64,000 nt of DNA from Candidatus Tayloriibacteriota bacterium (GTDB taxonomy: Bacteria; Patescibacteriota; Minisyncoccia; Phycocordibacterales; PALSA-1337). The stretch spans positions 67,795 to 131,794 of the forward strand of contig PLXZ01000001.1 in assembly GCA_003151615.1 (NCBI GenBank). The letters are read 5' to 3'. The notes beneath the pieces were generated by a model that did not search any database, had not been told where the DNA came from, and was given only the letters and a program-made list of their open reading frames with translations. The stretch's first letter is position 1. Each line of letters begins with the position of its first letter. The translations under genes and the position numbers were made by a program. Shown piece by piece: positions 4,934 through 22,204 of this stretch.

Positions 4934-4941
4934 ATTCACAC

Positions 4942-6096: not shown

Positions 6097-6173
6097 TCGG
6101 GTCTACTACTGTAGCGATATTTCCCTATCCTTAAAGAGGGTGGAAAAACTCTCATACTTTGGGCAAATGTTAA

Positions 6174-6359
6174 TTATTTCCATCGATAAAGATGCACGGC
6201 AATATACATGGCGAGCATCCCAATCCAGAAGCCTCCGCACACTGTGACAACATCATGGAAGGGTGTCCAGATGACCCCAAACCATGAGAGCATTAGAATA
6301 ATTGCCCATACGACAGCGGCACCGATCACATATACATATAAAGGTCTTTTTTCTAGCAT
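6174..6359 (-). CDS. small membrane protein 61 aa
   Basis: two hydrophobic helices (VYVIGAAVVWAIILMLSWFGVIW..., GGFWIGMLAMYIAVHLY). Confidence 0.35.
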   Translation of the reverse strand: MLEKRPLYVYVIGAAVVWAIILMLSWFGVIWTPFHDVVTVCGGFWIGMLAMYIAVHLYRWK

Positions 6360-6473
6360 GGATTTTATTTATGTTTGAAGGTAACCCCTAGAGGGACTTA
6401 TCTCACAGTAGACGTGACACTTCGCATGCCATTACATAGACACCGAAAGTATACCAAGAAAGTTCGATTCCTG

Positions 6474-7554
<1,081 letters not shown>

Positions 7555-7556
7555 AT

Positions 7557-7907
7557 ATGAATGAATTAGACATACCCATCTTCAAAAAAAGTTACGATCT
7601 CTACAAAGATTTCTATAACCTGCGCCTATCCGTTCCCAAGCAAGACCGCTATACGCTTTGGCAGAAATGCGAAAGCCTACTGATTGAAGTTTTGGAAGGC
7701 ATCCTTCTCGCAAGTCAGCAGTCAAAGTCGGAAAAACTACCGACCCTAGAAAAGACGAGCGTCAAGTTGAATTTCCTTCGAGTCTGTATCCGCCTCATGA
7801 AAGACATTAAGGCGATTGACTCCAAGAAATATATCATCATCGAAGCGAATCTCGACGAAATCGGGAGAATGCTCGGGGGATGGATACGGTCAACAAAGGA
7901 GCGTTAA
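7557..7907 (+). CDS. avd: Avd-like accessory variability determinant (four-helix-bundle / 23S rRNA IVS protein family), 116 aa, on the opposite strand to RT, TR and target
   Basis: KSYDLYKDFY...PKQDRYTLWQKCESLLIEVLEGIL and C-terminal EANLDEIGRMLGGWIRS closely resemble the Bordetella phage Avd ...AEVGRILGSWIAR motif; start ATG 7557 lies 2 bp from the RT start codon (7554, opposite strand). Confidence 0.6.
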   Translation: MNELDIPIFKKSYDLYKDFYNLRLSVPKQDRYTLWQKCESLLIEVLEGILLASQQSKSEKLPTLEKTSVKLNFLRVCIRLMKDIKAIDSKKYIIIEANLDEIGRMLGGWIRSTKER

Positions 7908-7953
7908 CAGAAACTTCCGCTTTTGTGGCGGAAGTTTCTTTGGATAGAGTTTG

Positions 7954-8072
7954 ACTGCCTGGCAGCCGAAACACCGATATTGTCGTTGCGATTGTCGTCG
8001 TTCCAGTTGTTGACGTTGAGACCTGTGGAATCGAAGTTGCCGACGTTGACGTGGTTACCGTCCGAATCGAGA
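7954..8072 (-). repeat. DGR template repeat (TR), 119 bp, AAC-codon rich (LDSDGNHVNVGNFDSTGLNVNNWNDDNRNDNIGVSAAR in the VR frame)
   Basis: 119/119 alignable to 8424-8542; every internal difference is at an adenine of this copy (- strand). Confidence 0.85.
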
Positions 8073-8354
8073 TATTGCCCGTTCCCGTCCGCGTCACCGA
8101 GAATCGAGGTTTACTAGCTTTTCAGCTCTATATCCTCTCATCCCTGAATTGTATTCGAGAGCAGTTTTTTCAAAACACCTCCTCTAAAAACGGGCAAGAA
8201 GTTCTCTCTATCCTTAATCGCGCTCTGCCGTGATCCGTAAACCACTGGCACTCCGGCGATATCTCAAGGCGAGATATCTCGCGAGCTTGAACCGTGATCC
8301 AAGCTACAGTAGCAAGATGGAAATATCATATCGTTTTTTGTATATAAAAGAAAG

Positions 8355-8384
8355 AGCCTCCGCGAAAAAATTCGCGGAGGCTCA
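8355..8384. terminator. perfect 13-bp hairpin GAGCCTCCGCGAA-aaaa-TTCGCGGAGGCTC, about 40 nt downstream of VR and target gene stop
   Basis: read directly; on - strand followed by T-rich tract; position matches the hairpin/cruciform element required downstream of VR in characterised DGRs. Confidence 0.55.
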
Positions 8385-8421
8385 AGTGTTCAAGAGGGAC
8401 AAGCCCTCAAGGGATCAAGAA

Positions 8422-9225
8422 TCACTTCCTGGCAGCCGAAACACCGAGAGAGTCGTGGCGACTGTCGTCGTACCAGTGGCTGACGTAGAGACCTGTGGAA
8501 TCGAAGCGGCCGACGCGGACGCGGTAACCGTCCGAATCGAGACTGGACGTCCGAACGTAAACGCCTTCGAAGAGTCGGACACCACGAACCTCGAAATAGG
8601 TCGTGATGAACCAGCTCATCTCGGCAGCGTTCGGCACCTTCTCGAGTGCGGAGAGAAGCTTGTTCTGCTCGTTCCAGTTTTTGCTGGTCGAGTTCGAAAC
8701 AGGCGTCTTCTTGATCAGGAGCCAGCCGAAGGACGTCTTGTCCTCGCGGGCGAACTTCTGATCGGCATACCATCCACCAGTCTTCGAGTAGAAGTGGGCG
8801 GACTGGATCTCCCGAACGTCGAGCGTGGAGCACGCTTGCGGCGGTGCAGGCATGACGGCGTAACCGTTGTCCTTGCACCACTTGAGAATGTCCTCCGACG
8901 GCAGACTTTCAGCGAGTGCCGTGATCTGTTCGACGGTGTAAACGATGCTCGGGCGAGCCTTGGTGACTTCCTCGGGCGTAATGAAATCCGCGCCGAGGAT
9001 TGACTGAGCCAGACCGTAGTCGGGCGCTTTCGCTCCGAAGCGACGGATGCCTTCTGCGAGATACACGGCGAAGCCGGGATGCTCGTTCAGGATCTGTGCG
9101 CTTTCGTCGTTGAGTCCCGCCTTGTTGTATTGGGCGCGGAACGTTTCGGTAGCTCTCTGTCCTTTCGGACTGTCTGCGGTTACCAGTGCAGACGTGTTCA
9201 ATGTTTTCATCGACATCATCTCCAT
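8422..9225 (-). CDS. DGR target (variable) protein, 267 aa, C-terminal ligand-binding region encoded by VR (...GYRVRVGRFDSTGLYVSHWYDDSRHDSLGVSAARK*)
   Basis: VR occupies last 39 codons and ends 2 codons before TGA stop; antisense ORFs 8230..9003(+) and 8390..8881(-) judged spurious. Confidence 0.75.
   Translation of the reverse strand: MEMMSMKTLNTSALVTADSPKGQRATETFRAQYNKAGLNDESAQILNEHPGFAVYLAEGIRRFGAKAPDYGLAQSILGADFITPEEVTKARPSIVYTVEQITALAESLPSEDILKWCKDNGYAVMPAPPQACSTLDVREIQSAHFYSKTGGWYADQKFAREDKTSFGWLLIKKTPVSNSTSKNWNEQNKLLSALEKVPNAAEMSWFITTYFEVRGVRLFEGVYVRTSSLDSDGYRVRVGRFDSTGLYVSHWYDDSRHDSLGVSAARK
8424..8542 (-). repeat. DGR variable repeat (VR), 119 bp, forming the 3' end of target gene 8422..9225
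   Basis: 15 substitutions relative to TR, all at TR adenines (TR AAC to VR TAC/CGC/AGC/CAC; AAT to AGT/TCT); one extra non-A difference at the 3' end (IMH versus IMH*-like). Confidence 0.85.
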
Positions 9226-9453
9226 TTGCTGATTTACCGAGAACGCTCGGAACGACTTGCCTCAGTTTGAGACGAGCTTTCTAGGCCCTGATTTAAGGCT
9301 CAAAAAGCTCGTCTCAATGTCTATTGAATCTTGAATTACAAGGAACTTTACAGCTCGATAATAACATATTTGAGTAGCAAAGTCAATGGTTTGGGCATCT
9401 AGCTACTGTAGCAAGAGTATTTTTGAGTTCGAACTTGTGATATGCTTTGGGGT

Positions 9454-10140
9454 ATGAAAAAAATAATTTCAATTACCATTTCCGTGGCGCTCGTTATAGT
9501 AGTCGGTATTATTACATCTTCTGTCTTTGGTAATCATTCCTCGTATCCATTTACAGTGCCGCCACTTAGTCAAGGTGGCACCTCCACTACCACTTCTTCT
9601 GTTATGGCACCCACTCCACAAAAAATTACTGCAACAAGTTCTCGATCAGCTCAAAGTCCAGTCAGTAACAATAATAGCGGTATAGTTCAGTCTCAGGCAA
9701 CAACGACTGCGGCTGATGATTTTACCATTGATTTTCCTGGCCAACCAACACACACCACACAAACATTAACATCTCCGTATCAGGGTCTTCCGATTCAAAG
9801 TGACTCATATCAGTATGACGGATCGGAAACGTTGACTTACATTGTGAATCATATTCAGTATTCCTCAGATATTAATATTTCTGTTCCAAAAAATAATTTA
9901 CAAGGTGTGATGAATGGCGTGTTAAGTTCCGTTAAAGGGGCAGTCATAGCAACATCTACATTTGAGACTTTTGGAGGGTATCCTGCACTTCAATACGAAT
10001 TATACGCAAGCGAAACTGGTACATATGTTTATAGCAAAGCTATATTAATAGGAAATCAGTTGTATCAAATTTCTGTTTTTTACCAAGGTTCTGCACCAAG
10101 CAATATTAATGAATTCATAAATTCATTCAGACTTAAATAA
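9454..10140 (+). CDS. secreted/membrane-anchored protein of a paralogous family (shared FPGxP...YxLxxxxG...IGNQLY domain with 32308..32901 and 32908..34272)
   Basis: N-terminal TM MKKIISITISVALVIVVGIITS; Thr/Ser-rich linker; conserved C-terminal domain. Confidence 0.5.
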   Translation: MKKIISITISVALVIVVGIITSSVFGNHSSYPFTVPPLSQGGTSTTTSSVMAPTPQKITATSSRSAQSPVSNNNSGIVQSQATTTAADDFTIDFPGQPTHTTQTLTSPYQGLPIQSDSYQYDGSETLTYIVNHIQYSSDINISVPKNNLQGVMNGVLSSVKGAVIATSTFETFGGYPALQYELYASETGTYVYSKAILIGNQLYQISVFYQGSAPSNINEFINSFRLK

Positions 10141-10227
10141 AATAGTGAAAGCCTTCTAAGGGAATTTAACCCGACGTGTCTGTGTTATAATTTAACCGTC
10201 ACAATTTAACATAATATATCAATTTTT

Positions 10228-10593
10228 ATGGCTGAAAATGTAATGGTTGGTGGAGCTGTCGATGTGCTTACAGTCGCAAAAGCACAAAAAGGTATACTCT
10301 GGTGTGTCGTCGCAGCGATTGTTATCTTTGGCTTAGGAGCTGTTGTTGCGTGGGCATTTAATCTCTTAGATTTGCCGCTTGCAGTGGTTGAAATTTATTT
10401 TGCATATAAACTCCTTGTTGCGCTTAAATCGAAGTATTGGATTCTTTGGCTGATTGGAATGCTTGTTCCATTTCTTAGTTTCATACTGTTGCTTGTTCTG
10501 AATGACCGAGCTACAAAAGCGATTCGAGCGCAAGGATATAAAGTTGGTTTGATGGGCGCCAACTTGGCAAATATTAGAACCAAGACATCCTAA
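10228..10593 (+). CDS. small membrane protein 121 aa
   Basis: three hydrophobic helices. Confidence 0.4.
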   Translation: MAENVMVGGAVDVLTVAKAQKGILWCVVAAIVIFGLGAVVAWAFNLLDLPLAVVEIYFAYKLLVALKSKYWILWLIGMLVPFLSFILLLVLNDRATKAIRAQGYKVGLMGANLANIRTKTS

Positions 10594-10598
10594 CACTT

Positions 10599-11000
10599 AT
10601 GCCGTTATTGGAAACATTAGGAGTGATTGTTGGGATCTTCTTACTTGTCCTAATCATTCTCTTGATTTGCAACTTGCCCTACATGATAAGATCCCGCCGA
10701 ATGGCTAAGGTAGCGAAAGAATTTAATTTATCTTTCTCAAAAGGCAAAGGACGTTTTCAGTTGCTCGTCGATACTGGCACAAAGAGAAATATCATCTCTG
10801 GAAATATTAAAGGACACACTATCGAGGCTTATGATTTCGATGCGTTTGTCTGGGCAACTCGCGGACTCATTAATCATGAATGGGTTTTAGTAGTCGATAG
10901 TAATGAGCAGCAAATAAAATCATTTCCTATAAAAATCCTCGGAACAAGAACGTCTGTTCACAAGATACGCAATATTCTAAGGCAAATTTCTCATAGCTAG
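10599..11000 (+). CDS. membrane-anchored protein 133 aa
   Basis: single N-terminal TM LGVIVGIFLLVLIILLICNLPYMI then soluble domain; 6 bp after previous gene. Confidence 0.4.
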   Translation: MPLLETLGVIVGIFLLVLIILLICNLPYMIRSRRMAKVAKEFNLSFSKGKGRFQLLVDTGTKRNIISGNIKGHTIEAYDFDAFVWATRGLINHEWVLVVDSNEQQIKSFPIKILGTRTSVHKIRNILRQISHS

Positions 11001-11079
11001 TTCCGACCCAAATGCGAACGTGATACGGATTCGGTTGAGTAATTACGACATCACACCGAACATAAAAAAATACCACCGA

Positions 11080-12420
11080 CTACTCCAGGGATATTTTCCT
11101 GTCTTTGAGCACCACTTTGCTCTTGAGACATGACAGGAGTTCGCGCTTTTCAGTAATCGTCCCTTCCTTGAGAAGATACTTTGCATACTCGCGCGTATCG
11201 ACGTCAGCCTTGCGATCTTTTGTTTTCATTCCGAGTACACCCATGCGGAATTTGTTGTACCGGATAATCTCCTCCTCGATCTTACCCTTCATGCCAATTT
11301 CATCAAGGTCGATGGTGTCGAGAAGATTGGTCAGCTCATCGATGAGGTCTTTTTCATTGATCGGCTGATTGGTGCAGTCGGTATTCCGTGCTTTGGTACA
11401 CATATAGTAGACATGGCGATTGACGCCGCCATCTTTCAGTTTTTTGAACTTTTCGTCGGCGGTGATGCCGGACTGACAGTATCCGCAAGTGATGAGCTTG
11501 GTGAAGGCGAATTCCTTGCTTTCAGTCTTTGGTATGTACTGCTCTTGGAGTGACGCTTGTACTTTGTCGAAGAGCTCCTTGGTAATGATGGGTTCATGCT
11601 TTCCTTGATACCACATGCCACCACCGGTGGGGTATTCAAACTCTCCGTAGTAGAAGGTATTGCGGAGAATGGTATATAGATTGGCTAAGGAGAGCTTCTT
11701 GTTATTTTTCGTTTTGAAGCCAGTTTGGCTGAGCCACCGATATGTCTGCCGTCCGCTCCATCCACCTGCGACCTTCTCAAATATCTGCCGGATGACAATC
11801 GATCGCCTCGGATCAAGCCGTACCTGACACTTTTTGTCGACATGCTTTTCATTGAGGTAGCCAGTCGGTGCCGTCGACGGTCGCCAACCCATCTCGCATC
11901 GAGCGCGAAGACCGCGCTTCACGTTGATGATCTTTTGGTCGTTTTCGAGCTTTGCTTGCGATCCGAGAATCATGAGCATGAATTTCTCGTTCGGGTTGTT
12001 AGTAAATTTCTGCGTATAGGTGCGTATCTCAAGAAGCTTACCCTGATCGAAAAGGTCGACGACCGCTCCTAGGTCTCCGGCGTTGCGGCTAAGTCTGTCC
12101 GGTGCCCAAGTGAGGATGCCATTAAACTTTCCGGCTCTGATTTCAGAAAGGAGTTCATTGTACACCGCACGCTGTCCAACTTCCTTTGAAGAGTGCGACT
12201 CTCGCTTCACCTCTGTTATTGCAAGCCCTTCTTTTTCGGCAAGTTGCGTCATCTCGCGCACTTGAGATTCGATTGAAAGGGCTTGCTTGTCTTCCTCCTC
12301 AGTCGACTTTCTTGCATACAGGCAGTAGCTCACCTTTATGGGCGCTTGGACGGCCTGCCTGTTAACGCCGCCCAAGGGAGCCCTTAATATTGTATTCATA
12401 CAGGCACCAAGGTACCGCAA
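11080..12420 (-). CDS. large serine recombinase (resolvase catalytic domain + recombinase domain + zinc ribbon), 446 aa
   Basis: YCLYARKSTEEEDKQALSIESQ catalytic Ser region; ...WAPDRLSRN; C-terminal CGYCQSG...YYMCTKARNTDC zinc ribbon. Confidence 0.85.
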   Translation of the reverse strand: MRYLGACMNTILRAPLGGVNRQAVQAPIKVSYCLYARKSTEEEDKQALSIESQVREMTQLAEKEGLAITEVKRESHSSKEVGQRAVYNELLSEIRAGKFNGILTWAPDRLSRNAGDLGAVVDLFDQGKLLEIRTYTQKFTNNPNEKFMLMILGSQAKLENDQKIINVKRGLRARCEMGWRPSTAPTGYLNEKHVDKKCQVRLDPRRSIVIRQIFEKVAGGWSGRQTYRWLSQTGFKTKNNKKLSLANLYTILRNTFYYGEFEYPTGGGMWYQGKHEPIITKELFDKVQASLQEQYIPKTESKEFAFTKLITCGYCQSGITADEKFKKLKDGGVNRHVYYMCTKARNTDCTNQPINEKDLIDELTNLLDTIDLDEIGMKGKIEEEIIRYNKFRMGVLGMKTKDRKADVDTREYAKYLLKEGTITEKRELLSCLKSKVVLKDRKISLE

Positions 12421-12519
12421 CGGTTGGGGGTGTCTAGTGCGTACTAGAGGCCTCGAAGTAGGTAACTTTATGTCCCGAAATACCCTTGTGTGGCTTCATA
12501 TATTCCGTATATCTGACAT

Positions 12520-14382
12520 TTACGGCATGGTAAACTCATCCCCGAAAATATCCTTCAATTTTTCGCCATGCTCCTCTGTAACCGCCGGATCAGGGACGAT
12601 TTTGCCGATATCAATGAACAGGTCTTTCTTCACCTGTAAAGGAACCTTACTTATGAATATATTTCTTTTTAATTTTTTGTCATTTTTATCGTCATCATCG
12701 GGAAGCGTCCGTCCCAAAGCCCTGCGAAGCGCCGAGTTGTGCTGATCGATGCACTCCTTGAGCCTTGCAAGCATGATTTTAATCCGATCATCTATGTCGA
12801 CTTCGTAGATGGCCGACAATTTTGTAAAAAGTACATCGAAAGCCAGGAGCTTTGCATAGCCGTCGATGACGGTCTGCCGTTCATTGACGAATACTTCCTC
12901 GTATCGGGGATTCTTGAACTCCAAGAATGTTTCGTCACCCTGCTTAATCTCCTTAAACATCATCTCTCCCTCGGATATTCCCGAAACGAGTGCCATCGAC
13001 ATGCCATATACGCTAAAAAAGTTCGGTTCACCTTTATCCGTCAGGCCACAGATGAGAAGCTCCTGATCGAGGTGATTGCCTTTTTGCTCCGGATCGTCGT
13101 CTGCGTAGACGAGACCGAGATTCGGTTCATATTCGTCGATCCGCTTTTTGAATTCCTTGACGAACTCATAGTCGGACGCGAAAGCGTAGAGGCTCTCTCC
13201 GGTTATGACTACACCCTCAAACGTCTCGAATGCAACCTTTTCATCAAGCTCTCCTTTCTCCGGAATTTCCATGCCGGAAATTTCCAAAGCTCTGCGGGCA
13301 TTTTCAAGCTCGCTGTCGCAGAGGCCTTTGCTGTAAAGTTTGTCCTGCATCGTTTCATGTTCCGTCCGTTCTCGTGTTGTAAGGGTGCCAGCAGATACGA
13401 GTTTGTTCAGAGTCGTACGGGCGAGAATTTTTTCACGAAGCCATCTTTCGAGAAGCTCTTTGCCATTACTGACGGCAAGCGGCGTGTACTGCTCAAGCAG
13501 ATCGCCGTCAAGCCAGTCCAAGCAGGCATTTTTAAGCATCGCCTCGATCGTGATTCGATGATCCTTCGCATACACTTCTACGGCATCCTTAATTTCATCA
13601 AATGTGACATCGTCCTCATCGTCCGATTCCTGATTTTTCGCCAATGATTTCCCTTTGACTGTAATGCCTTTACCAATGAGGAAGTGCCTTGCTATTTCGG
13701 CGAGAGGAATACAGGCGAAATAGTGGAAGATCTGATATTCTTTGGCGAATTTGTTATAGCAACGCTCGACGACAAGAGTGGCAAGCTTCTCTTTGGCTTC
13801 TGGAGTCAATTTGTCCTGGCCGTCAAAAAGGTTGGCGATGATTTCTTCCTGATCAAGGTACTGATGATCAACTTCGACCTCGGCGTATAGTTCATTGAAT
13901 GATTTTTTGTCCTCGGCGGTGAGATTCTCAAACGCGAGCCGGTAGACGGCGTAGTCGAAATCCATGCCGTCTTTGAGCTTGACAGCTCTCTGTTTTCCTG
14001 CGATTTCCATCGCTCCTTTCACGCTGACCTTCTTAATACGCTCAAGGCTTTCTATGCATTTCTTCATTTGACGTTGATGAGGATATGAGAGCAGGGCAAA
14101 CATCATCGTCGTTTTCCTGAAGTGTCCTGACTGAGCTTCGAGAAGAACGATTTCTGCTTCGATGCCCATACGTCCGGAATATTTCCAGCCTTCATTGAGG
14201 CGGTTCCATTCATGGGATTCAGTATTGTTCTTGGCCTGCCAATTTTCGAGTGCATTTTTGTCCGCTTCAGTCAGAACATCCTTGCCTGTCTTTGCGCGAT
14301 GAACGTCGTTTTGAATGAGCATGAGATAGCGCTCTTTAGGAGTGAGGTTTCCGCGCTGTAGATTTGTTGCGAAGTTTTTCAT
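12520..14382 (-). CDS. hypothetical acidic, largely helical protein, about 620 aa (start taken at MKNFATNL)
   Basis: long ORF; no Walker A or nuclease motif recognised; last gene of - strand operon 12520..17033. Confidence 0.5.
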   Translation of the reverse strand: MKNFATNLQRGNLTPKERYLMLIQNDVHRAKTGKDVLTEADKNALENWQAKNNTESHEWNRLNEGWKYSGRMGIEAEIVLLEAQSGHFRKTTMMFALLSYPHQRQMKKCIESLERIKKVSVKGAMEIAGKQRAVKLKDGMDFDYAVYRLAFENLTAEDKKSFNELYAEVEVDHQYLDQEEIIANLFDGQDKLTPEAKEKLATLVVERCYNKFAKEYQIFHYFACIPLAEIARHFLIGKGITVKGKSLAKNQESDDEDDVTFDEIKDAVEVYAKDHRITIEAMLKNACLDWLDGDLLEQYTPLAVSNGKELLERWLREKILARTTLNKLVSAGTLTTRERTEHETMQDKLYSKGLCDSELENARRALEISGMEIPEKGELDEKVAFETFEGVVITGESLYAFASDYEFVKEFKKRIDEYEPNLGLVYADDDPEQKGNHLDQELLICGLTDKGEPNFFSVYGMSMALVSGISEGEMMFKEIKQGDETFLEFKNPRYEEVFVNERQTVIDGYAKLLAFDVLFTKLSAIYEVDIDDRIKIMLARLKECIDQHNSALRRALGRTLPDDDDKNDKKLKRNIFISKVPLQVKKDLFIDIGKIVPDPAVTEEHGEKLKDIFGDEFTMP

Positions 14383-14383
14383 A

Positions 14384-14599
14384 TCATTTTCGCTTTTTAA
14401 GCGACTGCTCGATGAATTTGACCCGTTCTTCGAGATCAGCGACCTCGATGACTTTCGACAAGGCAAGCGCCACGCGCGAAATGGCAAGGGCGCGGCGCAG
14501 AGTTATTTTCCTCTCGGCCACGTCTTTCAAGGTTTCCGACAGGATTATAGCCGCTTCATCGGCAGTCATATGTTTGTTTGTGATGTTTATATTTTCCAT
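14384..14599 (-). CDS. small helical protein, 71 aa (MENINITNKHMTADEAAIIL...)
   Basis: stop separated by 1 nt from downstream ATG (14382); internal start chosen over upstream Arg-rich extension. Confidence 0.4.
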   Translation of the reverse strand: MENINITNKHMTADEAAIILSETLKDVAERKITLRRALAISRVALALSKVIEVADLEERVKFIEQSLKKRK

Positions 14600-14615
14600 A
14601 TTATTTTTATGTGTG

Positions 14616-14990
14616 TTACATGTTCTCGACAATCTCGTACCACGCCTTAACCTCCGCCGCCTTACCATCTTTCGTTATCCTTTTATACAAAGCCATGAGT
14701 ACGTTTGGCGTGAGTTTCCGCGCCCATGCGTTTATGCCTGGGACAAGACCATCCTTCTCAATCTTTTTGTTCCAATCAGAAAGGGTGGCGATATTAACGT
14801 TGAACCGTTTGGCGAATTCCGTTTGGGTCTTGATCGACAGAAGGTCAATTGCGACTTCGTCATCGATGCCGAATTTTTCGAGCAATTGTCGAGGCTGCCC
14901 ACGCAGTATCGACGGCATAGCCTTCCACATGAGGTAGGAGTCGAAATCCTGCTTTTTATAGACCTCCTGATTTGCAGAATCCTTAGCCAT
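14616..14990 (-). CDS. HTH DNA-binding protein, phage terminase-small-subunit-like, 124 aa
   Basis: LSIKTQTEFAKRFNVNIATLSDWNKK helix-turn-helix; position immediately after MTase genes as in prophage packaging modules. Confidence 0.4.
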   Translation of the reverse strand: MAKDSANQEVYKKQDFDSYLMWKAMPSILRGQPRQLLEKFGIDDEVAIDLLSIKTQTEFAKRFNVNIATLSDWNKKIEKDGLVPGINAWARKLTPNVLMALYKRITKDGKAAEVKAWYEIVENM

Positions 14991-14991
14991 T

Positions 14992-15750
14992 TCAGTTTAT
15001 CTTCTCAGCTTTTATGCCGGTCAGTTTCTCCCATCGGGCAATGGTGGTTGAGACATATTCCGGATCAATGTCAATGCCCACGCATCTTCGACCAAGATGC
15101 TCGCACGCGATCAAGGTGCTGCCACTACCGAGGAATGGGTCGTATATGCATTCGCCCATTTTCGTGGAATTTGGTATGAGCTTTCGCAAGAGTCCGACAG
15201 GTTTTTGTGTCGGGTGCAGTTTAGACTTTGATGGCTTCGGATGAAATATGATACTTTTAGCTTTTGTCCGCTCCATTTTGTGCCGACCCTTCCATCCGTA
15301 TGCGATGAGCTCGAATTGGGGAAGGTAATCCTTGCGCCCGAGAACGACATGATTTTTCACCCAGACGATCATTTGGCTGTAGTAGAAACCTGCCTGCTTC
15401 ATTCCCGCGCGGAGTGCCGGAAACATCATGTCACCGTTAAAAATGTAGCAGGCGTTGTAGGACTCAAGATGCGGTATGATCGCTTCAAGCCACGTTTTGG
15501 TAAAAGCGGCATATTCGTCATCGCTCTGGAGTTGATCTCCGATGATCACCCTGCCTGTATCGACGCCAAGTTTGCTCAGGTCTCTTTTACCCTCGACGTA
15601 GGCAACTCCGTACGGCGGATCCACTAGTACGCATCTTATTTTTCTGTCGCCAACGACCTTGCTTACAAACGCCGAATCGAGGGAACTGCCGCAGGCAACG
15701 ATATGATTGCTGAGCTTGTATATATCACCTTGTTTAATTTCGGTTTTCAT
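14992..15750 (-). CDS. DNA N6-adenine/N4-cytosine methyltransferase (N6_N4_Mtase family), complete
   Basis: motif IV VLVDPPYGVAY and C-terminal motif I DPFLGSGSTLIACE; start ATG overlaps upstream stop as ATGA. Confidence 0.85.
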   Translation of the reverse strand: MKTEIKQGDIYKLSNHIVACGSSLDSAFVSKVVGDRKIRCVLVDPPYGVAYVEGKRDLSKLGVDTGRVIIGDQLQSDDEYAAFTKTWLEAIIPHLESYNACYIFNGDMMFPALRAGMKQAGFYYSQMIVWVKNHVVLGRKDYLPQFELIAYGWKGRHKMERTKAKSIIFHPKPSKSKLHPTQKPVGLLRKLIPNSTKMGECIYDPFLGSGSTLIACEHLGRRCVGIDIDPEYVSTTIARWEKLTGIKAEKIN

Positions 15751-17033
15751 ATGAGTTTTGCTTTTTTGTTGGTAAAGGCCTCCCACCGGTCGATGATCAC
15801 AGTGGCGAAGATGAGATCCTGTTCAACGCCGCGCCATTTTCGATTGAGCTGCTCGCAGGCGATTAAGTCGCTGCCACTTCCCGCGAAGCCAGAAAAGACG
15901 ATGTGCCCAGGAGCACTGCACCGCTTCAATGGCTTTTCATTAAGCGACACCGGCTTCTGTGTCGGGTGAGCATAATCCTGGGCGTTGTCGCGTTTCTCGA
16001 GCCAGAGATTAATCATGTCGAAAATTTCCTCATGAACTTGGTTGCCGCTCCCGACTTCCTGATTAAGAATTTCGTTCAGATTCTTCATGTTGCTGTTGAG
16101 GTACGGCTTGCCTCGGATGCCATGAACGCAGGGCTCGTATACTTTATTCCACGCCACTTGCGGGGTCATGTTGAAATTATTTTTAATCCAAAGACAGACA
16201 CGCTTACTATCGATATCATTCTCACGAAAAAGCGTCTGCGTGAGCCATATGAACCGCTCATCGCACCAGTAAAAGAGATGACAGTCTGGCTTCGCTATCG
16301 TGAGCGCTGTCTTTATGCTTGCGTCCAAGAATGCCCCATACTCCACATCTTTTTTCGAGTCCTTTTTGCCGGTAAACGATCCCTCATACTTGCCGGATGT
16401 GCTGACGCCGTTTGAATAGTCCATGCCGATATTAAATGGAGGGTCGCAATATATGATGTCGGCAAGATCGTTGCCCATGAGTTTTTTTACCTGATCCGGC
16501 AGGGTTGAATCGCCGACAAGAAATCGGTGATCGCCAAGTTCCCATATTTCGCCGGGCTTTACTCGCGGTACTTTCGTTTCCTTTAGCGCTTTTTCGATAT
16601 CGTATTGATCGTCGATGACGTCGACATCGTCGAACAATGCTTGTAGTTCATCGTCTCCGAAGCCGACTTCAAGAAGAAGATCCATGTCCATGTCTTTTAG
16701 AAGCTCCTGATCCCACGAGCCGGTGTTCTGATTTTCGCGCAGAGCTGCTTCCTTGTATTCTGATTCCGTCAGCGGTCGATTTGGAATGCGCACATCGATG
16801 ACTTCATCTCCGCGACCCAAAAGATGAAGTATCTTTATTCGTTGATGGCCTGAAATTATCCGATCATCCGTGTTTATAACCGGTATGGACATCAAATTGA
16901 ATTTCTCCAAACTGGCTCGCAGATTACGTTCCTCGGCTTCGGTCAACTTGCGGGGATTTTTGTCCCAGGGCACAAGACCGGATACCTTCCGCTTGACTGT
17001 TGACCATGTCAGGTCCGTTTTTTCTTTTTTCAT
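15747..17033 (-). CDS. ParB-like nuclease N-terminal domain fused to DNA methyltransferase (phage/plasmid-type ParB-MTase)
   Basis: N-terminal ...NPRKLTEAE...IISGHQRIKIL (ParB/Srx fold); IIYCDPPFNIG and FSGFAGSGSDLIACE MTase motifs. Confidence 0.85.
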   Translation of the reverse strand: MKKEKTDLTWSTVKRKVSGLVPWDKNPRKLTEAEERNLRASLEKFNLMSIPVINTDDRIISGHQRIKILHLLGRGDEVIDVRIPNRPLTESEYKEAALRENQNTGSWDQELLKDMDMDLLLEVGFGDDELQALFDDVDVIDDQYDIEKALKETKVPRVKPGEIWELGDHRFLVGDSTLPDQVKKLMGNDLADIIYCDPPFNIGMDYSNGVSTSGKYEGSFTGKKDSKKDVEYGAFLDASIKTALTIAKPDCHLFYWCDERFIWLTQTLFRENDIDSKRVCLWIKNNFNMTPQVAWNKVYEPCVHGIRGKPYLNSNMKNLNEILNQEVGSGNQVHEEIFDMINLWLEKRDNAQDYAHPTQKPVSLNEKPLKRCSAPGHIVFSGFAGSGSDLIACEQLNRKWRGVEQDLIFATVIIDRWEAFTNKKAKLI

Positions 17034-17164
17034 TTTTATAATAAATTAGTTTATAAATTCACATCGACATTATTAATGCGTGCGTATCTGTCGACCGGAA
17101 ACGCACTGTCAACATCAAAGCGTTAACCAAATTAAAGACACAAGTGAGTGGTTAGGGAAAAGAA

Positions 17165-17192
17165 AAAAGCCTGATTTTTCAGGCTTTTTCAC
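17165..17192. terminator. bidirectional intrinsic terminator AAGCCTGA-tttt-TCAGGCTT flanked by A-run/T-run
   Basis: read directly; downstream of stop of 17249..18220 (-). Confidence 0.6.
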
Positions 17193-17248
17193 TGTCTGAT
17201 GTCAGGTTATCCCCATCACCGACCAATTTTGGTTAACGACTTGGACAA

Positions 17249-18220
17249 TCATTCGGAATACTTCAATCGATGATTGATACCCCATTTATTACCAGTGTAT
17301 TTGTGAAGTATTTCGGGAAGATTGTTTTTCTTGCACACGTTGCTTATACGTTTAATCTCTTTCGATATGACCTGCTTGGAATGTCCTAGGTCAGTCACAA
17401 GCTCAGAAAGAGTTTTTGAATTTTGGGAATATTTCCTGATGCCATACAGATGTTCAATAATGATGCACGCAAGCGGGGGAAGTTTTTCTTCCGATGTTTT
17501 CTTAAACACACCTCTCGTTGACTGATCGGATAGAAGATAGCCTTTTTCAAGAGCTAGATTGTCGTCAAGCATGATTGATCCGTCTTCTGTCGCGTACGTA
17601 TTTCGGGAAAAAAATTGTTCAACGGCTTCTTTTTTAAGAAAAAGTCCTTTCTCTGTTATTTTCTGGAATAAATCAATTATCGGCACCAGGAGTACTTTAT
17701 CCGGCAAGGAGATTTGCGGCGTTCCAGTATAGAAGACAGCACTTCGAGGTAAATGCGTGATAATGCTGAGTTTCGGCTTCTCGATGTCGTTTATGTCACG
17801 ACAGAAAAAAAGATGATAGTCCGCTCCATTTATCGTTTGCGTGCCCAAACTCCACAGTAAGCTGTCGATACTCTCGGAAATCGTTGGAGACAGAATATCC
17901 ATAGATTTCTGAAATGCACTAAGAAAATTTTCGATATTGAATTGCCACTGCTGTATTTCCGCCGGATTGAAATAATCACGTTTGGCATGTTCATTTTGGG
18001 TACACATTGTGTACGCACGGTCTTTTGAGACGTGATGAACTTCGACGTCTTCATTGTGGCAGGTCACGCACCATATGTTTTTCGGATCGCTCGTCTTTTC
18101 AAGTAAAGCCAAAGCAGGCAGGATATCAAAATCCCTTTTTCGTTTGTTGGCATCGTCGACGGTGATTACGATAGGAAAAAGACGTGCTTGTTTATTGAGT
18201 ATTTCAATTAGAAAATCCAC
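17249..18220 (-). CDS. hypothetical protein 323 aa with N-terminal Cys/His cluster (WCVTCHNEDVEVHH...CTQNEH) and C-terminal HTH-like segment
   Basis: ORF; overlaps upstream gene by 17 nt (operon). Confidence 0.45.
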   Translation of the reverse strand: MDFLIEILNKQARLFPIVITVDDANKRKRDFDILPALALLEKTSDPKNIWCVTCHNEDVEVHHVSKDRAYTMCTQNEHAKRDYFNPAEIQQWQFNIENFLSAFQKSMDILSPTISESIDSLLWSLGTQTINGADYHLFFCRDINDIEKPKLSIITHLPRSAVFYTGTPQISLPDKVLLVPIIDLFQKITEKGLFLKKEAVEQFFSRNTYATEDGSIMLDDNLALEKGYLLSDQSTRGVFKKTSEEKLPPLACIIIEHLYGIRKYSQNSKTLSELVTDLGHSKQVISKEIKRISNVCKKNNLPEILHKYTGNKWGINHRLKYSE

Positions 18221-18536
18221 GGTCTATTTTTGATTTTTTAAGCACTTGTCCGGCCTTTACGTCGAGATCGTCAAGGTCGTTAAGAGAACTTGTGTCTTTC
18301 CATGTGACGTAAAAGGTCTTCGTCCCGCGCGGATGTTTTTTCGTTGGCTTGAACTTTATTTTCATATCCACACGATTGAGTCGCAAGGAATCGATCTTGT
18401 CGGCGAGTTTTAAAGAATCCAATGTCCGCCAAATCATGTCCGTCCCGGATATACTTTCATTTTTTGTATAAATTTTCATCTGTGTCTGCCCATCTGGTGT
18501 CTTTAAATCAAAGCCTTTGAGCCACCAACCGTCCAC
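18204..18536 (-). CDS. hypothetical protein 110 aa
   Basis: ORF begins 2 nt after stop of truncated MTase gene. Confidence 0.4.
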   Translation of the reverse strand: MDGWWLKGFDLKTPDGQTQMKIYTKNESISGTDMIWRTLDSLKLADKIDSLRLNRVDMKIKFKPTKKHPRGTKTFYVTWKDTSSLNDLDDLDVKAGQVLKKSKIDRGFSN

Positions 18537-18537
18537 T

Positions 18538-19296
18538 TCAGACTATGAAATCTTTCCATCTTTGTGCATCGACAGTATCTTCTTGGTTATCACTATATAT
18601 CAAATTAAATTTTGGATGGTCGATATTTCGATACCAATAAATAACATTGTGTTTGCGAGGATAATAACTTTTAACTTGTCCCTGGTATGTCCTAAAATGC
18701 CAAATAATTTCATTGACCAGGTTTCCCTCACCGAATATCTCATCCAAAACCATTTTTACATAGTGCCCTTTTTTTTGATCAAGCTGTACAAAGATAGAGC
18801 CATCGGGTGCAAGCAATTCTTTTGCAACGACCAACCTTCTGCGTAAAAATTCAATAAATTCCGCGCCTTTCTTTTTGTCTACATAAGCCCTACTTCCCGA
18901 GGTCGTGGTAGTGAATTCTTCATCAGAAGCAAAGGGTGGGTCAATGTAGATAAGTTTTACCTTACCCTTAACTTTTCCTTTGACAAGCTCGTCTTCATTT
19001 TTATAAAAAGTTTTGAGAATTTGTAGGTTGTCACCGAATACCAAAAGATTATGCCAATCTTTAGCGGCAAGAGGATATTTTTCACCATTAAAGACTTTTT
19101 CAATTTGGAGGGGTACGGCTTTTGCCTCCTCGTTGTCTGCCAAGATATCCTCCTTTCGTGCCTTACCGGCATACACAAGTTCATACTCTTTTTGTTTAGT
19201 TGGAAAAAGAGCATACTTATACTCGGCAGGTATATCCTTACCGTTTTTTAAGCACTCAATTAAATATTCTTTATCGTATGAATTAAGATTCAGCAT
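18538..19296 (-). CDS. N-terminal catalytic half of a type III Mod-like / beta-class adenine DNA methyltransferase; truncated, lacking C-terminal AdoMet FxGxG motif
   Basis: LIYIDPPF motif IV, ...HYVKMVLDEIFGEGNLVNEIIWHF, ...RKHNVIYWYRN...KFN typical of Mod N-domain; ORF ends at 252 aa with no FxGSG downstream in any adjacent ORF. Confidence 0.65.
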   Translation of the reverse strand: MLNLNSYDKEYLIECLKNGKDIPAEYKYALFPTKQKEYELVYAGKARKEDILADNEEAKAVPLQIEKVFNGEKYPLAAKDWHNLLVFGDNLQILKTFYKNEDELVKGKVKGKVKLIYIDPPFASDEEFTTTTSGSRAYVDKKKGAEFIEFLRRRLVVAKELLAPDGSIFVQLDQKKGHYVKMVLDEIFGEGNLVNEIIWHFRTYQGQVKSYYPRKHNVIYWYRNIDHPKFNLIYSDNQEDTVDAQRWKDFIV

Positions 19297-19530
19297 AGGG
19301 TACAGCTATGCCGACTAAGATCCCCTTATTAAAAACAAGAAAGGGCACTCCCAGACGGTGTACCCATTCACGAATAGCCAAAGCCATCGATCCTGCCCGC
19401 TGAGAATGCCCTTTCAGGGCGGGATAGATGGACGACATAAAATGCCGAGCTACTCGAATGTAAATGGGTACATTTCATACTGTAACAAAAAAACTAAAAT
19501 TTTGCTAGGTCAAAATAGTCCTCTGTGTTT

Positions 19531-19556
19531 TAAACCATATTGTTTGAGTGTATAAT
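19531..19556 (+). promoter_or_regulatory. candidate sigma70-type promoter: TTAAAC, 15 nt spacer, extended -10 TGTATAAT, 7 nt before ATG 19564 (leaderless-like)
   Basis: ttaaaccatattgtttgagtgtataatagcaactATG. Confidence 0.35.
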
Positions 19557-19563
19557 AGCAACT

Positions 19564-20124
19564 ATGTCAAAAGATCTCTCCATAGAATATGCCCATATAT
19601 ACTCTAATAACAAGATCGGGGAGGAGCATAAGCTTTCGCTTGATATTCTAGGTAGCCTCCGTGACGAAGAAAAAGCTAAAGGCCACAGTATCTCCCTTGT
19701 AGTTCTTGTCGACGATTATTCCTTCCCTGATCCTGCATTTGACTACACGACCTTTTCAGCATGGCTCAGTGAGAACGGCTTCAAGCCAGACCTGGTACTA
19801 CGAGAATCACAGCTCATTCCACTCTGTGATGAGACGCTCAAGCTTGTGAATGACCCTAAACTCAAGGATCAGATCGGAGACTACGTCCGTCAGAAAAAAT
19901 ACCCATGTTCGTTATTCGTCGCTACATGGTATCTCCTTAGGCTCGGTTATCTTTCATCCCCGATCTTCAACGCCGAACTGGCAGCAAAAAATGTCATCAA
20001 TATATTACCCTTGAGTTTCAAACCGTTTGAAGAAAAAGCGTTGGAAATTATTGCGGCCACCAAATATGTGGATGCGGTTAAGAAAATCGATTGGCGATAC
20101 TTCGAAGGAAGATTGGTAGTATAA
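19564..20124 (+). CDS. hypothetical protein 186 aa
   Basis: ORF; start at MSKDLS directly after the candidate promoter. Confidence 0.5.
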   Translation: MSKDLSIEYAHIYSNNKIGEEHKLSLDILGSLRDEEKAKGHSISLVVLVDDYSFPDPAFDYTTFSAWLSENGFKPDLVLRESQLIPLCDETLKLVNDPKLKDQIGDYVRQKKYPCSLFVATWYLLRLGYLSSPIFNAELAAKNVINILPLSFKPFEEKALEIIAATKYVDAVKKIDWRYFEGRLVV

Positions 20125-20129
20125 TTTTA

Positions 20130-20558
20130 TTCATCATAGAGGTGGATAACCTCGTTGACACGACAAGGGCGGAGGTATAGCATGCTACTTCAGAGCTTAC
20201 TGCTCTCCTTAACAATGCAGTTGACCACTCCGTAGCAATACGGGGTACATAGGGCGACAACAATCGCCATCCTGTCGGTAGTGCGAGAGACGGTTCTTTT
20301 TCAGAACACCTGACGATGCTTGTGACGGATCAAAACAAAAGTCCAAACGAGCGCGTTTGTCGTGTCTGCGGACACACCGGGTTTGCATTCTGAGAGATTG
20401 CTATGTATCAATCCATCGACTATCGAGGGGCCGATATGCGCGTGACTCGTTCACTGTCGCTGGCCCCTCCCTTTTCACTAGAGTAACGTCTCATTCCTCC
20501 GAGAACGTTTGATGCCGCCGGGGCCCGTTGCACTTTCGCAACGGGCCCTATATTTTTT
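20130..20558 (+). ncRNA. candidate structured non-coding RNA (about 430 nt) of unknown class, ending in strong intrinsic terminator
   Basis: no ORF of 60 aa or more; GC-richer than flanks; many local hairpins (GAGGT-ggata-ACCTC; AGAGC-ttactg-GCTCT; CCGTA-GCAA-TACGG GNRA loop; GGCGA-caacaa-TCGCC; GTGTC-tgcg-GACAC; GAGGGGCC...GGCCCCTC) and 11-bp terminator stem. Confidence 0.4.
20520..20558 (+). terminator. rho-independent terminator GGGCCCGTTGC-actttc-GCAACGGGCCC + TATATTTTTT
   Basis: perfect 11-bp GC-rich stem followed by T-run. Confidence 0.8.
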
Positions 20559-20622
20559 CCAGAAAATGTGGTATTTTGATCTCAAACATAGCAACTTGAA
20601 ACTTTAACCGAAAGGCTCCGAT

Positions 20623-20970
20623 ATGTCTGAATCCTCTGATTACACCTGGTATATTGATACCTGCGGTGACAGCCGCACTAACGAATGCATTGCTCAAATG
20701 CTTACCGGCACCTCTGATGAATGCGAATGCTGGGAACAGCTCTGCGAAGACGATAAACGTCGCGCATTGTGGAGATGCCCCGATCACGAATTCCTATCAC
20801 GTTTCGAACATCACATGAAACGCTACAAATATCGCTATGCTATCTACAAGAAGAAGGGCAAGTATGGTGAGATTCGTCTCTGGCAATTCAGTCGTCCCGC
20901 CACTGTCCTCCGTAAGAACAAGCATCAGGCTGTTCCTGAACAGAAGGGACATCATCTTGTCACTGCATAA
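20623..20970 (+). CDS. Cys-rich small protein 115 aa (CGDSRTNEC...CECWEQLC...CPDH)
   Basis: ORF 60 nt after terminator. Confidence 0.4.
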   Translation: MSESSDYTWYIDTCGDSRTNECIAQMLTGTSDECECWEQLCEDDKRRALWRCPDHEFLSRFEHHMKRYKYRYAIYKKKGKYGEIRLWQFSRPATVLRKNKHQAVPEQKGHHLVTA

Positions 20971-21017
20971 ATTACACGTCACCCTTTCCTTCGAGGACTG
21001 GGTGATTTTTTCTCGAC

Positions 21018-21500
21018 TTAGATTTTAGTGGTTAGAAAAACATTGAGCTTGGCGAGTTGCTGTGTAAATCCGCCTTCCATACCCTCAACAGCCATTGCCG
21101 GTGCGGTTGCGGGGTTGTTTATTATCGCCCTAACTTTTACCTTGGTCTTGCCATTTTCCTCAGTCAATGTTACTTCCGTGGTCTGATCGATCATGGTTTC
21201 TTTATCCTGTCCCTCAGTCCAAGCCTTGGCAGTATACGATAGCTTCGACGGCGGTTCCACGACCGTAAATTCCGCTTTCATCGGCCATTTTGTACCTTTA
21301 TATTGACCCATTGCTTCTCCCGCTTCCATGACGATATAAAATGTGCCGCCAACACGTAGATCGACTGTGCATTCAGGGATGGTGACGTTATCCGGCCCCC
21401 ACCATTGCTTGAGCATTTTGGGATCTGTCCAAGCTTTCCAAACTGATGCTAGGGGAGCGTCAAAAACGCGTTCGAGTGTCAATTCTTTTTTATTTTTCAT
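21018..21500 (-). CDS. SRPBCC-superfamily protein (AHSA1/activator of Hsp90 ATPase-like, polyketide cyclase fold)
   Basis: LERVFDAPLASVWKAWTDPKMLKQWWGP... typical AHSA1/SRPBCC N-terminus. Confidence 0.7.
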   Translation of the reverse strand: MKNKKELTLERVFDAPLASVWKAWTDPKMLKQWWGPDNVTIPECTVDLRVGGTFYIVMEAGEAMGQYKGTKWPMKAEFTVVEPPSKLSYTAKAWTEGQDKETMIDQTTEVTLTEENGKTKVKVRAIINNPATAPAMAVEGMEGGFTQQLAKLNVFLTTKI

Positions 21501-21501
21501 A

Positions 21502-21843
21502 TTATTTATCTTTGTTTACTCTTTTAACTTTTAATAGTGTATCTAATTTATCAAAACGTTTATTCCAGATATCCGTCATTTTGTGAGTCCATTGTTCGAT
21601 CTCATAGACGGCATTCATGTCGAGCTGATACATGCGTTGCTGGCCCTGCTTCTCAACGTACACCACATGTGCTTCGCGAAGAACTTTTAAATGCTGAGAG
21701 ATGGCGGCGGTGCTTTGACTGAATGTATCGCTGATGTCCGTTGCGGGTAGCCGACCTTTTTTCGCGAGCATCTCAATGATATGACGCCGGGTGGGCTCGG
21801 CAATTACATAAAATATATCCATGAAGATATAGTATGGCAACAA
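21502..21843 (-). CDS. ArsR/SmtB-family transcriptional regulator
   Basis: AEPTRRHIIEMLAKKG...ISQHLKVLREAHVV winged-HTH; likely true start at internal MDIFYV (21822). Confidence 0.75.
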   Translation of the reverse strand: MLPYYIFMDIFYVIAEPTRRHIIEMLAKKGRLPATDISDTFSQSTAAISQHLKVLREAHVVYVEKQGQQRMYQLDMNAVYEIEQWTHKMTDIWNKRFDKLDTLLKVKRVNKDK

Positions 21844-21944
21844 GATAATTAAGTCAACACTTAATTATCCACATATTGGTCATTCTCTGATTTTTGACAT
21901 TTGTTGACATTTCATACAACAGCACGAATTATGGAGCAAGACAA

Positions 21945-21973
21945 ATGGGACACGGATTTTCGGAGTGTCCCAT
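21945..21973. promoter_or_regulatory. inverted repeat ATGGGACAC-N11-GTGTCCCAT upstream of arsR-like gene (candidate operator); related GTGTCCCATTTGTCCCATT at about 22062
   Basis: read directly; about 100 bp upstream of - strand ArsR start. Confidence 0.35.
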
Positions 21974-22204
21974 TCTCAAATATCTATTTTGCCCTTATTA
22001 GGCTTACCTATTTTTGGTGATACTATCGAAAAATGGCACGATCTGAAATATGCCTAAAAGTGTCCCATTTGTCCCATTTTGTTTTTAGCACCCCCGACCT
22101 AGGTTCCTCGGTTTAGTATGCTAAAATATCCTCAAAGGCCCTTACGGGGTCTTGTCTCATAAGGTTCGAGACAGGGCGGGGGCACAAGGAAAAAATAGGG
22201 TAAA

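Follow-up and report, generated by a model that had tools for sequence, protein, structure and literature searches.

The window analyzed here is a stretch of 64,000 nucleotides (nt) from contig PLXZ01000001.1. Between positions 11080 and 19296, its minus strand carries a gene for a large serine recombinase, an operon of five genes that includes two DNA methyltransferases (MTases), and a fragment of a third methyltransferase gene. The original prediction described these genes as a phage-like island of 8.2 kb bounded by the serine recombinase. The named genes lie where it had placed them, all on the minus strand, and the stretch is probably the backbone of a 19.1-kb mosaic island that is integrated at the 3′ end of a tRNA-Arg(GCG) gene and belongs to a family of integrative elements. 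Numbers with an L (L002, L038, and so forth) denote related loci recovered from other genomes.

The Recombinase and the Core Operon

The large serine recombinase (11080–12399, minus strand) is 439 amino acids (aa) long and is matched by Pfam, PHROG, and NCBIfam models. The Resolvase domain PF00239, the N-terminal catalytic domain with the serine nucleophile, aligns to residues 34–178 (E = 1e-20), and the YARKS motif can be read in the translation. C-terminal of this catalytic domain are Recombinase PF07508 (E = 7e-19) and Zn_ribbon_recom PF13408 (E = 4e-8), while PHROG 95, an integrase family, matches with an E-value of 4e-64. The best NCBIfam match is CcrB (E = 1e-34), with 120 bits against a family cut-off of 900 bits, and the enzyme was on these grounds rejected as an orthologue of CcrA, CcrB, or CcrC. 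The recombinases of L002, L004, L006, L010, L011, L013, and L025 are 55–80% identical to that of the window, and about 10 of the 21 informative loci have a large serine recombinase within this range of identity downstream of the core operon. The sequence just downstream of the recombinase gene in the window has no nhmmer match in the other loci.

The first gene of the core operon (15747–17033, minus strand) encodes a 428-aa fusion of a ParB-like domain and an N6_N4 DNA methyltransferase, with the motifs GHQR, DPPF, and FAGSGS. The ParB-like families PHROG 620, 8071, and 723 match residues 11–150, PF02195 is found in the orthologues, and PF01555 covers residues 192–407. Full-length alignments of the fusion with 215 phage and 58 plasmid records show an identity of about 30%. 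The second gene (14992–15750, minus strand) encodes a complete beta-class N6_N4 DNA methyltransferase of 252 aa, with the motifs DPPY and FLGSGS, that spans positions 1–218 of the 221 in the Pfam profile. As read from the translations, motif IV (DPPF, DPPY) precedes motif I (FAGSGS, FLGSGS) in both enzymes. PADLOC and Pfam give only methyltransferase models here, and no cognate endonuclease stands beside the two.

The remaining genes of the operon, also on the minus strand, encode p124 (14616–14990), a helical protein with a weak helix-turn-helix (HTH) signal; p71 (14384–14599), a small basic protein with a pI of 9.5 that is kept in all loci covering its position; and p620 (12520–14382), an almost all-helical protein of 620 aa that is the hallmark of the family. 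The five genes are joined by an ATGA overlap at 15747–15750 and by gaps of 1, 16, and 1 nt. The original prediction held up well for this operon, since its junctions, the ParB-MTase fusion, the completeness of the second methyltransferase, and the lack of a neighboring endonuclease are all as it described. The order ParB-MTase, MTase, p124, p71, p620 is colinear in every locus that covers those positions (26 genomes). A terminator-like hairpin (17163–17190, minus strand) ends the transcription unit of p323, a gene described below, and parts that unit from the core operon. At roughly 17 kb, the G+C content falls from ~0.47–0.50 to ~0.40.

Island Boundaries and the Target Site

The island that holds these genes extends from 3051 to 22186. 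The flagged stretch was rightly recognized as accessory and associated with a recombinase, but the extent of 8.2 kb given to it was wrong, and the recombinase gene, though correctly identified, is not at the island edge. Next to one end is tRNA-Arg(GCG) (2977–3049, plus strand; detected by ARAGORN and Rfam), the integration target, with its 3′ end facing the island. A direct repeat of 25 nt brackets the whole. Copy 1 (3026–3050, plus strand) reads AGGTTCGATTCCTGCCGGGGGCACA and is the 3′ end of the tRNA, and the adjoining arm of the element reads CGCTAGTG. Copy 2 (22162–22186) forms the end of the conserved left terminus of the element family (21870–22186, plus strand). The repeat follows the pattern AGGTTCGA-N7-CGGGGGCACA, which the 64 kb contain exactly twice, with both copies pointing the same way, against a chance expectation of 0.08 matches; not one of 100 shuffles contained it twice. 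The earlier view that the island has neither attachment (att) repeats nor a tRNA is true only at its original boundaries, where a search from 10500 to 20200 gave only short matches at chance level. Both features are present at the true ends.

A metagenome scan with RuvA as the query retrieved relatives with an empty site. All five of them (L040, L041, L042, L044, and L045) share flank synteny with the window and have no island. Their RuvA is 60–90% identical to that of the window (89–90% for L040, L041, and L042), and flank identity is ~80% for these three, ~67% for L044, and ~64% for L045. In each of the five, a match to window 2415–3050, which contains an open reading frame (ORF) and tRNA-Arg(GCG), lies 1.5, 0.27, or 1.1 kb from a match to position 22208 or 22255 onward, a segment with rpsT, ruvA, and a Mur ligase gene. 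The spacing from the tRNA to the rpsT/ruvA side is thus 0.3–1.5 kb in these loci versus 19.1 kb in the window. The island is real and well bounded, and the comparison with related genomes, which had been proposed as a check, finds the region accessory and missing from relatives at a conserved locus. Because relatives at ~80% flank identity have no island, its gain or loss is recent on that scale.

The DNA just past 22186 consists of an A-rich stretch, a hairpin, and a T-run, as does the DNA 3′ of the tRNA in the empty sites. Together with the repeat, this sequence makes up the classic signature of integration at a tRNA 3′ end. The tRNA-side junction in the window, CACTAGCG followed by TGTGCCCCC, resembles the right arms of L002 (CACTAGTG followed by TGTGC) and L010 and differs from the empty site of L042. 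In the closest relatives, purD is found between tRNA-Arg and rpsT (8322–9635 in L042, where it is the sole gene in between), and the 64 kb of the window have no detectable purD at all. The island thus stands where those relatives have purD. In the tRNA-Arg that bears the island, the 3′ strand of the acceptor (window 3041–3050) reads CGGGGGC, and in the empty sites of L042 and L044 it reads CGGGAGC or CAGGAGC. The G in the window agrees with the consensus of the element terminus, and the end of the tRNA may therefore have been rewritten by the element.

Termini and Layout of the Element Family

The left terminus (21870–22186) is noncoding and has nhmmer matches in L035 (8e-41), L011 (9e-7), L021 (1.5e-6), L002 (1e-4), and L006 (4e-4). 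All of these matches end at window position 22186/7. The last invariant block of the alignment is GGGGCAC, and similarity stops directly after it. Between L006 and L021, the end of the terminus is also the start of the homology between the two elements, which have 79% nucleotide identity versus 65% for the host purD. Within the terminus, GTGTCCCATT occurs in four clustered copies at 21944–22078; three are exact, and one of these three is inverted. In reverse complement, the GGGGCAC core at the end of the terminus resembles this motif, tandem motifs of a comparable kind are present in L011, L021, and L035, and the copies may be protein-binding sites. A search for structured RNA in the left terminus found nothing in Rfam, and RNAalifold gave no covariation support.

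The opposite end is seen in L002 and L010, where a conserved arm of 120–150 nt separates the stop codon of the recombinase gene from a tRNA 3′ end. Of a right arm of this type, the window retains the final portion, beside tRNA-Arg. Both ends of L013 carry a repeat of 18 nt, with 1 mismatch, that corresponds to the 3′ end of a tRNA-Ser. Repeats of the tRNA end were not found in L002, L011, L012, L020, or L026, and among these only L011 has an inverted match that resembles the terminus.

The general layout begins with a left terminus ending in GGGGCAC, followed by an optional module, either regulatory (an XRE HTH protein with an M78 peptidase) or for replication (a primase-helicase), and by the core operon. 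After the operon come two cargo slots with the large serine recombinase between them and, last, a short right arm by the tRNA 3′ end. The XRE and M78 pair is upstream of the core operon in 12 loci. L038 has in this position a 489-aa protein and a Toprim-AAA_25 primase-helicase, the gene end of which overlaps the start of the ParB-MTase gene. The cargo of the family includes retroelements in ~8 loci; type I, type III-like, and type ISP restriction-modification (R-M) systems; GmrSD with an EcoRI-type methylase; and AAA_21 and AAA_5/VWA genes. Comparison at the sequence level establishes the family membership of the flagged genes and the conservation of the termini, which points to these genes as the backbone of a family of integrative elements of Patescibacteria. 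A search of the literature found no description of the family.

Conserved Proteins p620, p124, and p71

The hallmark protein p620 was described in the original prediction as an acidic helical protein. The AlphaFold2 model is confident (pLDDT 82, pTM 0.60) and almost all-helical, and the protein is mildly acidic, with a pI of 5.1. This value is ordinary, and a role as a DNA mimic, suggested by the word acidic, was rejected. A profile search of 1.84 billion cluster representatives with p620 found 235, and a survey of 185,579 species-representative genomes gave 26 loci. There are at least 229 homologues, with ~45–57% identity and lengths of ~560–625 aa. All of them are annotated as hypothetical, and those that bear an organism name are all labelled as Patescibacteria lineages. 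Identical p620 is present on three contigs that share one context. Searches of Pfam, PHROG, PADLOC, and NCBIfam, distant members included, gave no match, nor did a sequence profile search of the PDB, and Foldseek found no similar fold in the PDB or BFVD (best E 0.055). A match to a housekeeping family, for which p620 was to be checked, is likewise missing from these searches. Among phage, viral, and plasmid collections, p620 was not found in IMG/VR (2.9 million contigs), INPHARED, BFVD, or PLSDB.

The neighbors of p620 in other loci are informative about its role. In L038, the same gene string with p620 follows the Toprim-AAA_25 primase-helicase. The order in L031 is PrimPol-PriCT, a 102-aa protein, a 129-aa protein, a p620-like protein, and a serine recombinase, followed by the host gene ychF, and in L032 it is a tyrosine integrase, ParA, a ribbon-helix-helix protein, a 124-aa protein, and p620. 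L028 is a contig of 10,212 bp with a p620 homologue of 47% identity and a terminal overlap of 55 nt, and is therefore probably circular. Its genes encode an HTH_17 protein, Fic, a 131-aa protein, the p620 homologue, a 367-aa protein, a DnaG-like primase, a membrane protein, a tyrosine integrase, and a MerR-like protein. This contig (1–10212) was binned as “Planctomycetia” and is a candidate plasmid or excised element. A search for iterons near p620 gave short repeats in L028 only, which are uninformative. Since p620 accompanies integrases, primases, and partition genes, whether or not methyltransferases are present, it is best read as having a backbone function in mobile elements, rather than as a defense effector or a virion protein.

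The smaller protein p124 has 238 homologues and a distribution as narrow as that of p620. Its model is confident and all-helical. Weak matches to HTH_28 occur in 24 of 32 family members, and the PDB holds nothing structurally similar. The original label of this protein as TerS-like (resembling the small terminase) does not survive, because HTH_28 is its only signal and neither a terminase family nor a Foldseek hit matches it. In the distant variants, p620 has a partner of 130 aa; homology of p124 to this partner was considered and rejected, as hhalign detects none.

Methyltransferase Fragment, Cargo, and Mosaic Structure

The original count of three methyltransferases is right for the two of the operon, which are intact; the third is a pseudogene fragment from another type of element. 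It is the N-terminal half of a type III Mod-like methyltransferase (18538–19296, minus strand), covers profile positions 1–128 of 221, has motif IV and no motif I, ends at a +1 frame break, and is predicted to be inactive. It is followed by p110 (18204–18536, minus strand), a truncation product made up of the last 110 codons of a p400-family gene, with 72% identity to residues 291–400 of the L120 p400 (E = 3e-57). Next is p323 (17249–18220, minus strand), a remnant gene whose family comprises 32 proteins. A p323 homologue follows the 400-aa p400 gene in L120 and L123. The layout of these two loci is ResIII, Mod, and HTH_17 in one unit and p400, p322, DUF5659, p61, and Toprim primase in the other unit, with a serine recombinase further along. 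L120 (1–12969) and L123 (1–12966) represent a recurrent element type with a serine recombinase and a divergent type III R-M system. The p400 C-terminus and the p323 family both belong inside such elements, so that 17249–19296 is a broken piece of one of them. Two other readings of this piece were rejected. The three ORFs do not form one frameshifted gene, for p110 is the C-terminus of a p400-family protein, unrelated to the methyltransferase, and the truncated methyltransferase and p323 are not an R-M pair, for p323 belongs to a family of the element backbone.

The window island holds extra genes over ~5 kb between the left terminus and the operon and over ~8 kb between the recombinase gene and the tRNA. 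In the left arm, the segment with the p186 gene, a 186-aa ORF that has no assigned function, and a strong terminator (19546–20558, plus strand) has 95.7% nucleotide identity to the island of L035. This segment of 1 kb (L035 9983–10994) is shared between genomes whose housekeeping genes are ~67% identical, and just that piece was therefore exchanged recently. L035, a different species, also has the left terminus in common with the window (~93% over the last 90 nt); the rest of its content is a type III R-M system, a ParB_N protein, and an unrelated recombinase. A 115-aa ORF, an AHSA1/SRPBCC protein, and an ArsR-type HTH_20 regulator (20623–21843) separate the p186 segment of the window from the terminus, and L035 has no such genes there.

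On the tRNA side, the region absent from relatives includes a 130-aa ORF, a ParA/CbiA-like ATPase, a Fur-family regulator, and a YibE_F membrane protein, assigned by Pfam families (3272–6096). A diversity-generating retroelement (6474–9225) follows, with a reverse transcriptase (RT) of the RVT_1 family (6474–7554), bAvd (7512–7907), a template repeat (TR; 7942–8072), and a target gene (8422–9225) with a variable repeat (VR; 8412–8542). TR and VR are 131 nt long and 84% identical, and 17 of their 21 differences are at TR adenines. The RT is split into two ORFs at a perfect (GA)13 run (6978–7003), translated as RERERE. With the run set to 14 or 11 units, a single RT ORF of 358–360 aa results, and the L011 homologue is intact. 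The break could be a slipped-strand switch that turns hypermutation on and off, or an assembly error. Between the retroelement and the recombinase gene are three small ORFs (9442–11000, plus strand) of 232, 121, and 133 aa that are hydrophobic by eye and have no Pfam match on record.

Different parts of the island have different closest relatives. The operon is closest to that of L038 (ParB-MTase 71%, MTase 78%, p129 81%, p617 57%), whereas the L038 recombinase is only 30% identical. The recombinase (79.5% at the amino acid level) and the retroelement (65–85%) are closest to those of L011, with a nucleotide identity of ~74% that exceeds the 64.5% of the operon. In L011, where the retroelement adjoins the recombinase gene, the order is target, Avd, RT, and recombinase, and in the window the recombinase gene comes first. 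An att site between the RT and recombinase genes was considered as an explanation for the circularly permuted order and rejected, as no convincing shared site was found. The window copy is thus a mosaic, with an operon of one lineage, a recombinase and retroelement of another, and a broken piece of a third element type.

Two further features lie elsewhere in the window. After tRNA-Lys (26774–26848), the window has 11.3 kb up to 38160, while L041 and L042 have ~1.6 kb to the matching segment. In this second island, a 521-aa serine recombinase gene (26838–28403) abuts the tRNA-Lys 3′ end and is followed by a gene for an AAA_25 protein (28899–30146); a repeat of the tRNA-Lys end was looked for and not found. 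A tRNA-Arg(TCT) at 53567–53656 is 90 nt long by ARAGORN, with its anticodon at position 32, and this length, greater than usual, suggests that it holds an insertion or intron.

Proposed Mechanism and Alternative Explanations

Large serine integrases recombine attP with attB. From this precedent and the anatomy of the island, the serine recombinase would recombine attP, formed by the joined ends of the element (left terminus and right arm), with attB, the tRNA 3′ end, at the shared GGGGCAC core. The two orphan methyltransferases, of the N6-adenine type, would methylate the DNA of the element so that it survives restriction, including by the R-M systems that such elements carry; their orphan status and the parallels in phages and plasmids are consistent with this role. 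Gene neighbors hint that p124, p71, and p620 might provide a backbone function, most likely in DNA processing, replication, or transfer of the excised circle.

The original prediction was that the flagged stretch may be a degenerate prophage or a phage satellite. Its operon would then be the last section of a phage module for replication and modification, p124 a small terminase or packaging redirector, and p620 a diverged structural or packaging protein that works with a helper phage. ParB-methyltransferase fusions are reported to be enriched in prophage regions (PMC12704722), and the 215 phage records noted above contain full-length homologues of the fusion at ~30% identity. In Streptococcus phage Javan117, the order ParB-MTase, 259 aa, 131 aa, large terminase (TerL), portal mirrors the positions of the core operon, and the XRE/M78 pairs and primases of the relatives, as well as element sizes of ~9–15 kb that suit satellites, could be read the same way. 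The resemblance does not extend to the proteins, however. The methyltransferase, p124, and p620 have no homology to the Javan117 proteins at matching positions, TerS, TerL, and portal included. As was noted from the start, no TerL, portal, or capsid gene has a Pfam or PHROG match among the window genes, and the Pfam calls and family scans of ~25 related loci likewise show no terminase, portal, capsid, or tail gene. A large terminase is expected to have an ATPase and a nuclease fold, to which the almost all-helical model of p620 bears no likeness. This protein is absent from the viral collections, and the ParB-MTase alone has homologues in phages. A prophage or satellite origin is therefore improbable. 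Still less probable is that the five genes form a methylation-based defense system, with p620 as the effector and XRE/M78 as a damage-responsive regulator, in a defense island that happens to lie beside an unrelated recombinase. The neighboring cargo is mostly defense, two methyltransferases beside large proteins of no known family recall modification-dependent systems, and XRE and M78 pairs control some immune operons. PADLOC, however, recognizes only the methyltransferases. On the probably circular 10-kb contig, p620 and a small upstream partner are present without a methyltransferase, and p620 is also found beside primases, ParA, and integrases. The operon start in L038 overlaps the end of a primase-helicase gene, and the operon co-occurs with conserved element termini.

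A third alternative accepts that the island arose by integration and holds that it is now a decayed, immobilized remnant, a fixed mosaic kept for its cargo and methyltransferases. The split RT, the truncated methyltransferase, the lack of an XRE/M78 or primase module upstream of the operon, the extra 8 kb and 5 kb of DNA inside the two arms, and the identical context of all three contigs with identical p620 are in its favor. On the other hand, the recombinase gene, the five core genes, and both termini are intact, the RT break is perhaps reversible given that 14 or 11 GA units restore the frame, and the empty sites of relatives at ~80% flank identity speak for a recent gain or loss. Such a remnant is rather unlikely, and the island is probably an integrative element of the family described above. 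Several points nonetheless weigh against that reading. Two of them concern the state of the window copy, which has neither the XRE/M78 nor the primase module of its relatives and which may, in view of its pseudogenes (the split RT and the truncated methyltransferase), no longer be mobile. A distance of 8 kb separates the recombinase gene from the tRNA, roughly half of the related loci have no recombinase gene within 10 kb, and L021 has none at the position where L006 has one. A repeat of the tRNA end was not found at the left end of L002, a circular contig is known only for the distant relative L028, which has a tyrosine integrase, and for the window island itself neither an excised circle nor an empty-site read was seen. 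Finally, the identity of the core proteins does not follow the lineage of the recombinase: p124 is 81% identical in L038 with a recombinase of 30%, and 62% identical in L011 with a recombinase of 80%. None of them therefore looks like a recombinase-specific partner or a lineage-specific directionality factor.

The integrative-element reading has implications beyond the window. It describes a bounded family with recognizable termini, a cognate serine integrase, and a tRNA target, and it points to a route by which R-M systems, other defense genes, and retroelements may move between reduced genomes. Three conserved proteins without known relatives, p124, p71, and p620, are nominated for experimental study, with confident models at hand. 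If active, the recombinase is a possible genetic tool for a phylum that has few, and the reconstructed att sites make it directly testable. A bolder proposal, advanced here only tentatively, is that p620, p124, p71, and the GGGGCAC terminus define an undescribed class of integrative, partly plasmid-like elements that are specific to Patescibacteria and analogous to staphylococcal cassette chromosome (SCC) elements, and through which these ultra-small bacteria would exchange defense systems and diversity-generating retroelements. In such a class, p620 would be a protein of new fold for an essential step, such as replication initiation or transfer of the circle.

Comparison with Known Systems

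The island has features in common with several known types of mobile elements. Like P4-like satellites and phage-inducible chromosomal islands, it is a small integrative element with an integrase and variable slots for defense systems. The window copy has the integrase and no primase; the relatives have Toprim-AAA_25 (L038) or PrimPol (L031). Unlike these satellites, it has no identified gene for capsid size or packaging redirection (small terminase, Sid/Psu/Cpm-like), and it was not found in viral collections. We know of no helper phage for the element. The ParB/N6_N4 methyltransferase fusions of phages and plasmids (PHROG 498 and similar) share the two-domain architecture, ~30% full-length identity, and the orphan state without an adjacent endonuclease. 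They differ in their setting, as the island's fusion sits in a fixed operon of five genes with three proteins of no known family, in neither a phage genome nor a known plasmid.

Islands integrated at tRNA genes and integrative mobilizable elements with ImmR/ImmA-type pairs, such as ICEBs1, resemble the island in the site at a tRNA 3′ end with its repeat, in their cargo, and in their absence from sister genomes. The pair of an XRE repressor and an M78 peptidase at one end of 12 related loci is a further likeness, although the window copy does not have it, and the integrase is a serine recombinase, where a tyrosine integrase is usual. Genes for a relaxase, a coupling protein, or type IV secretion were not recognized in the element.

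The island appears to be an integrative element and not a prophage, and in its mode of action its closest analogue is the staphylococcal SCC cassette. Differences from SCC and SCCmec are clear, in that the recombinase is not a Ccr orthologue (120 versus 900 bits), the target is a tRNA gene and not rlmH, the host phylum is another one, and the core operon is unrelated to the Cch/CCPol operons. SCC elements likewise insert site-specifically at the 3′ end of a conserved gene and are flanked by repeats. They are mobilized by large serine recombinases, have a mosaic or composite structure with variable cargo, and carry a conserved operon upstream of the recombinase gene, as does the island. In SCC, this operon encodes poorly understood proteins, including a primase/helicase, that are thought to aid replication after excision (PMC7581432).

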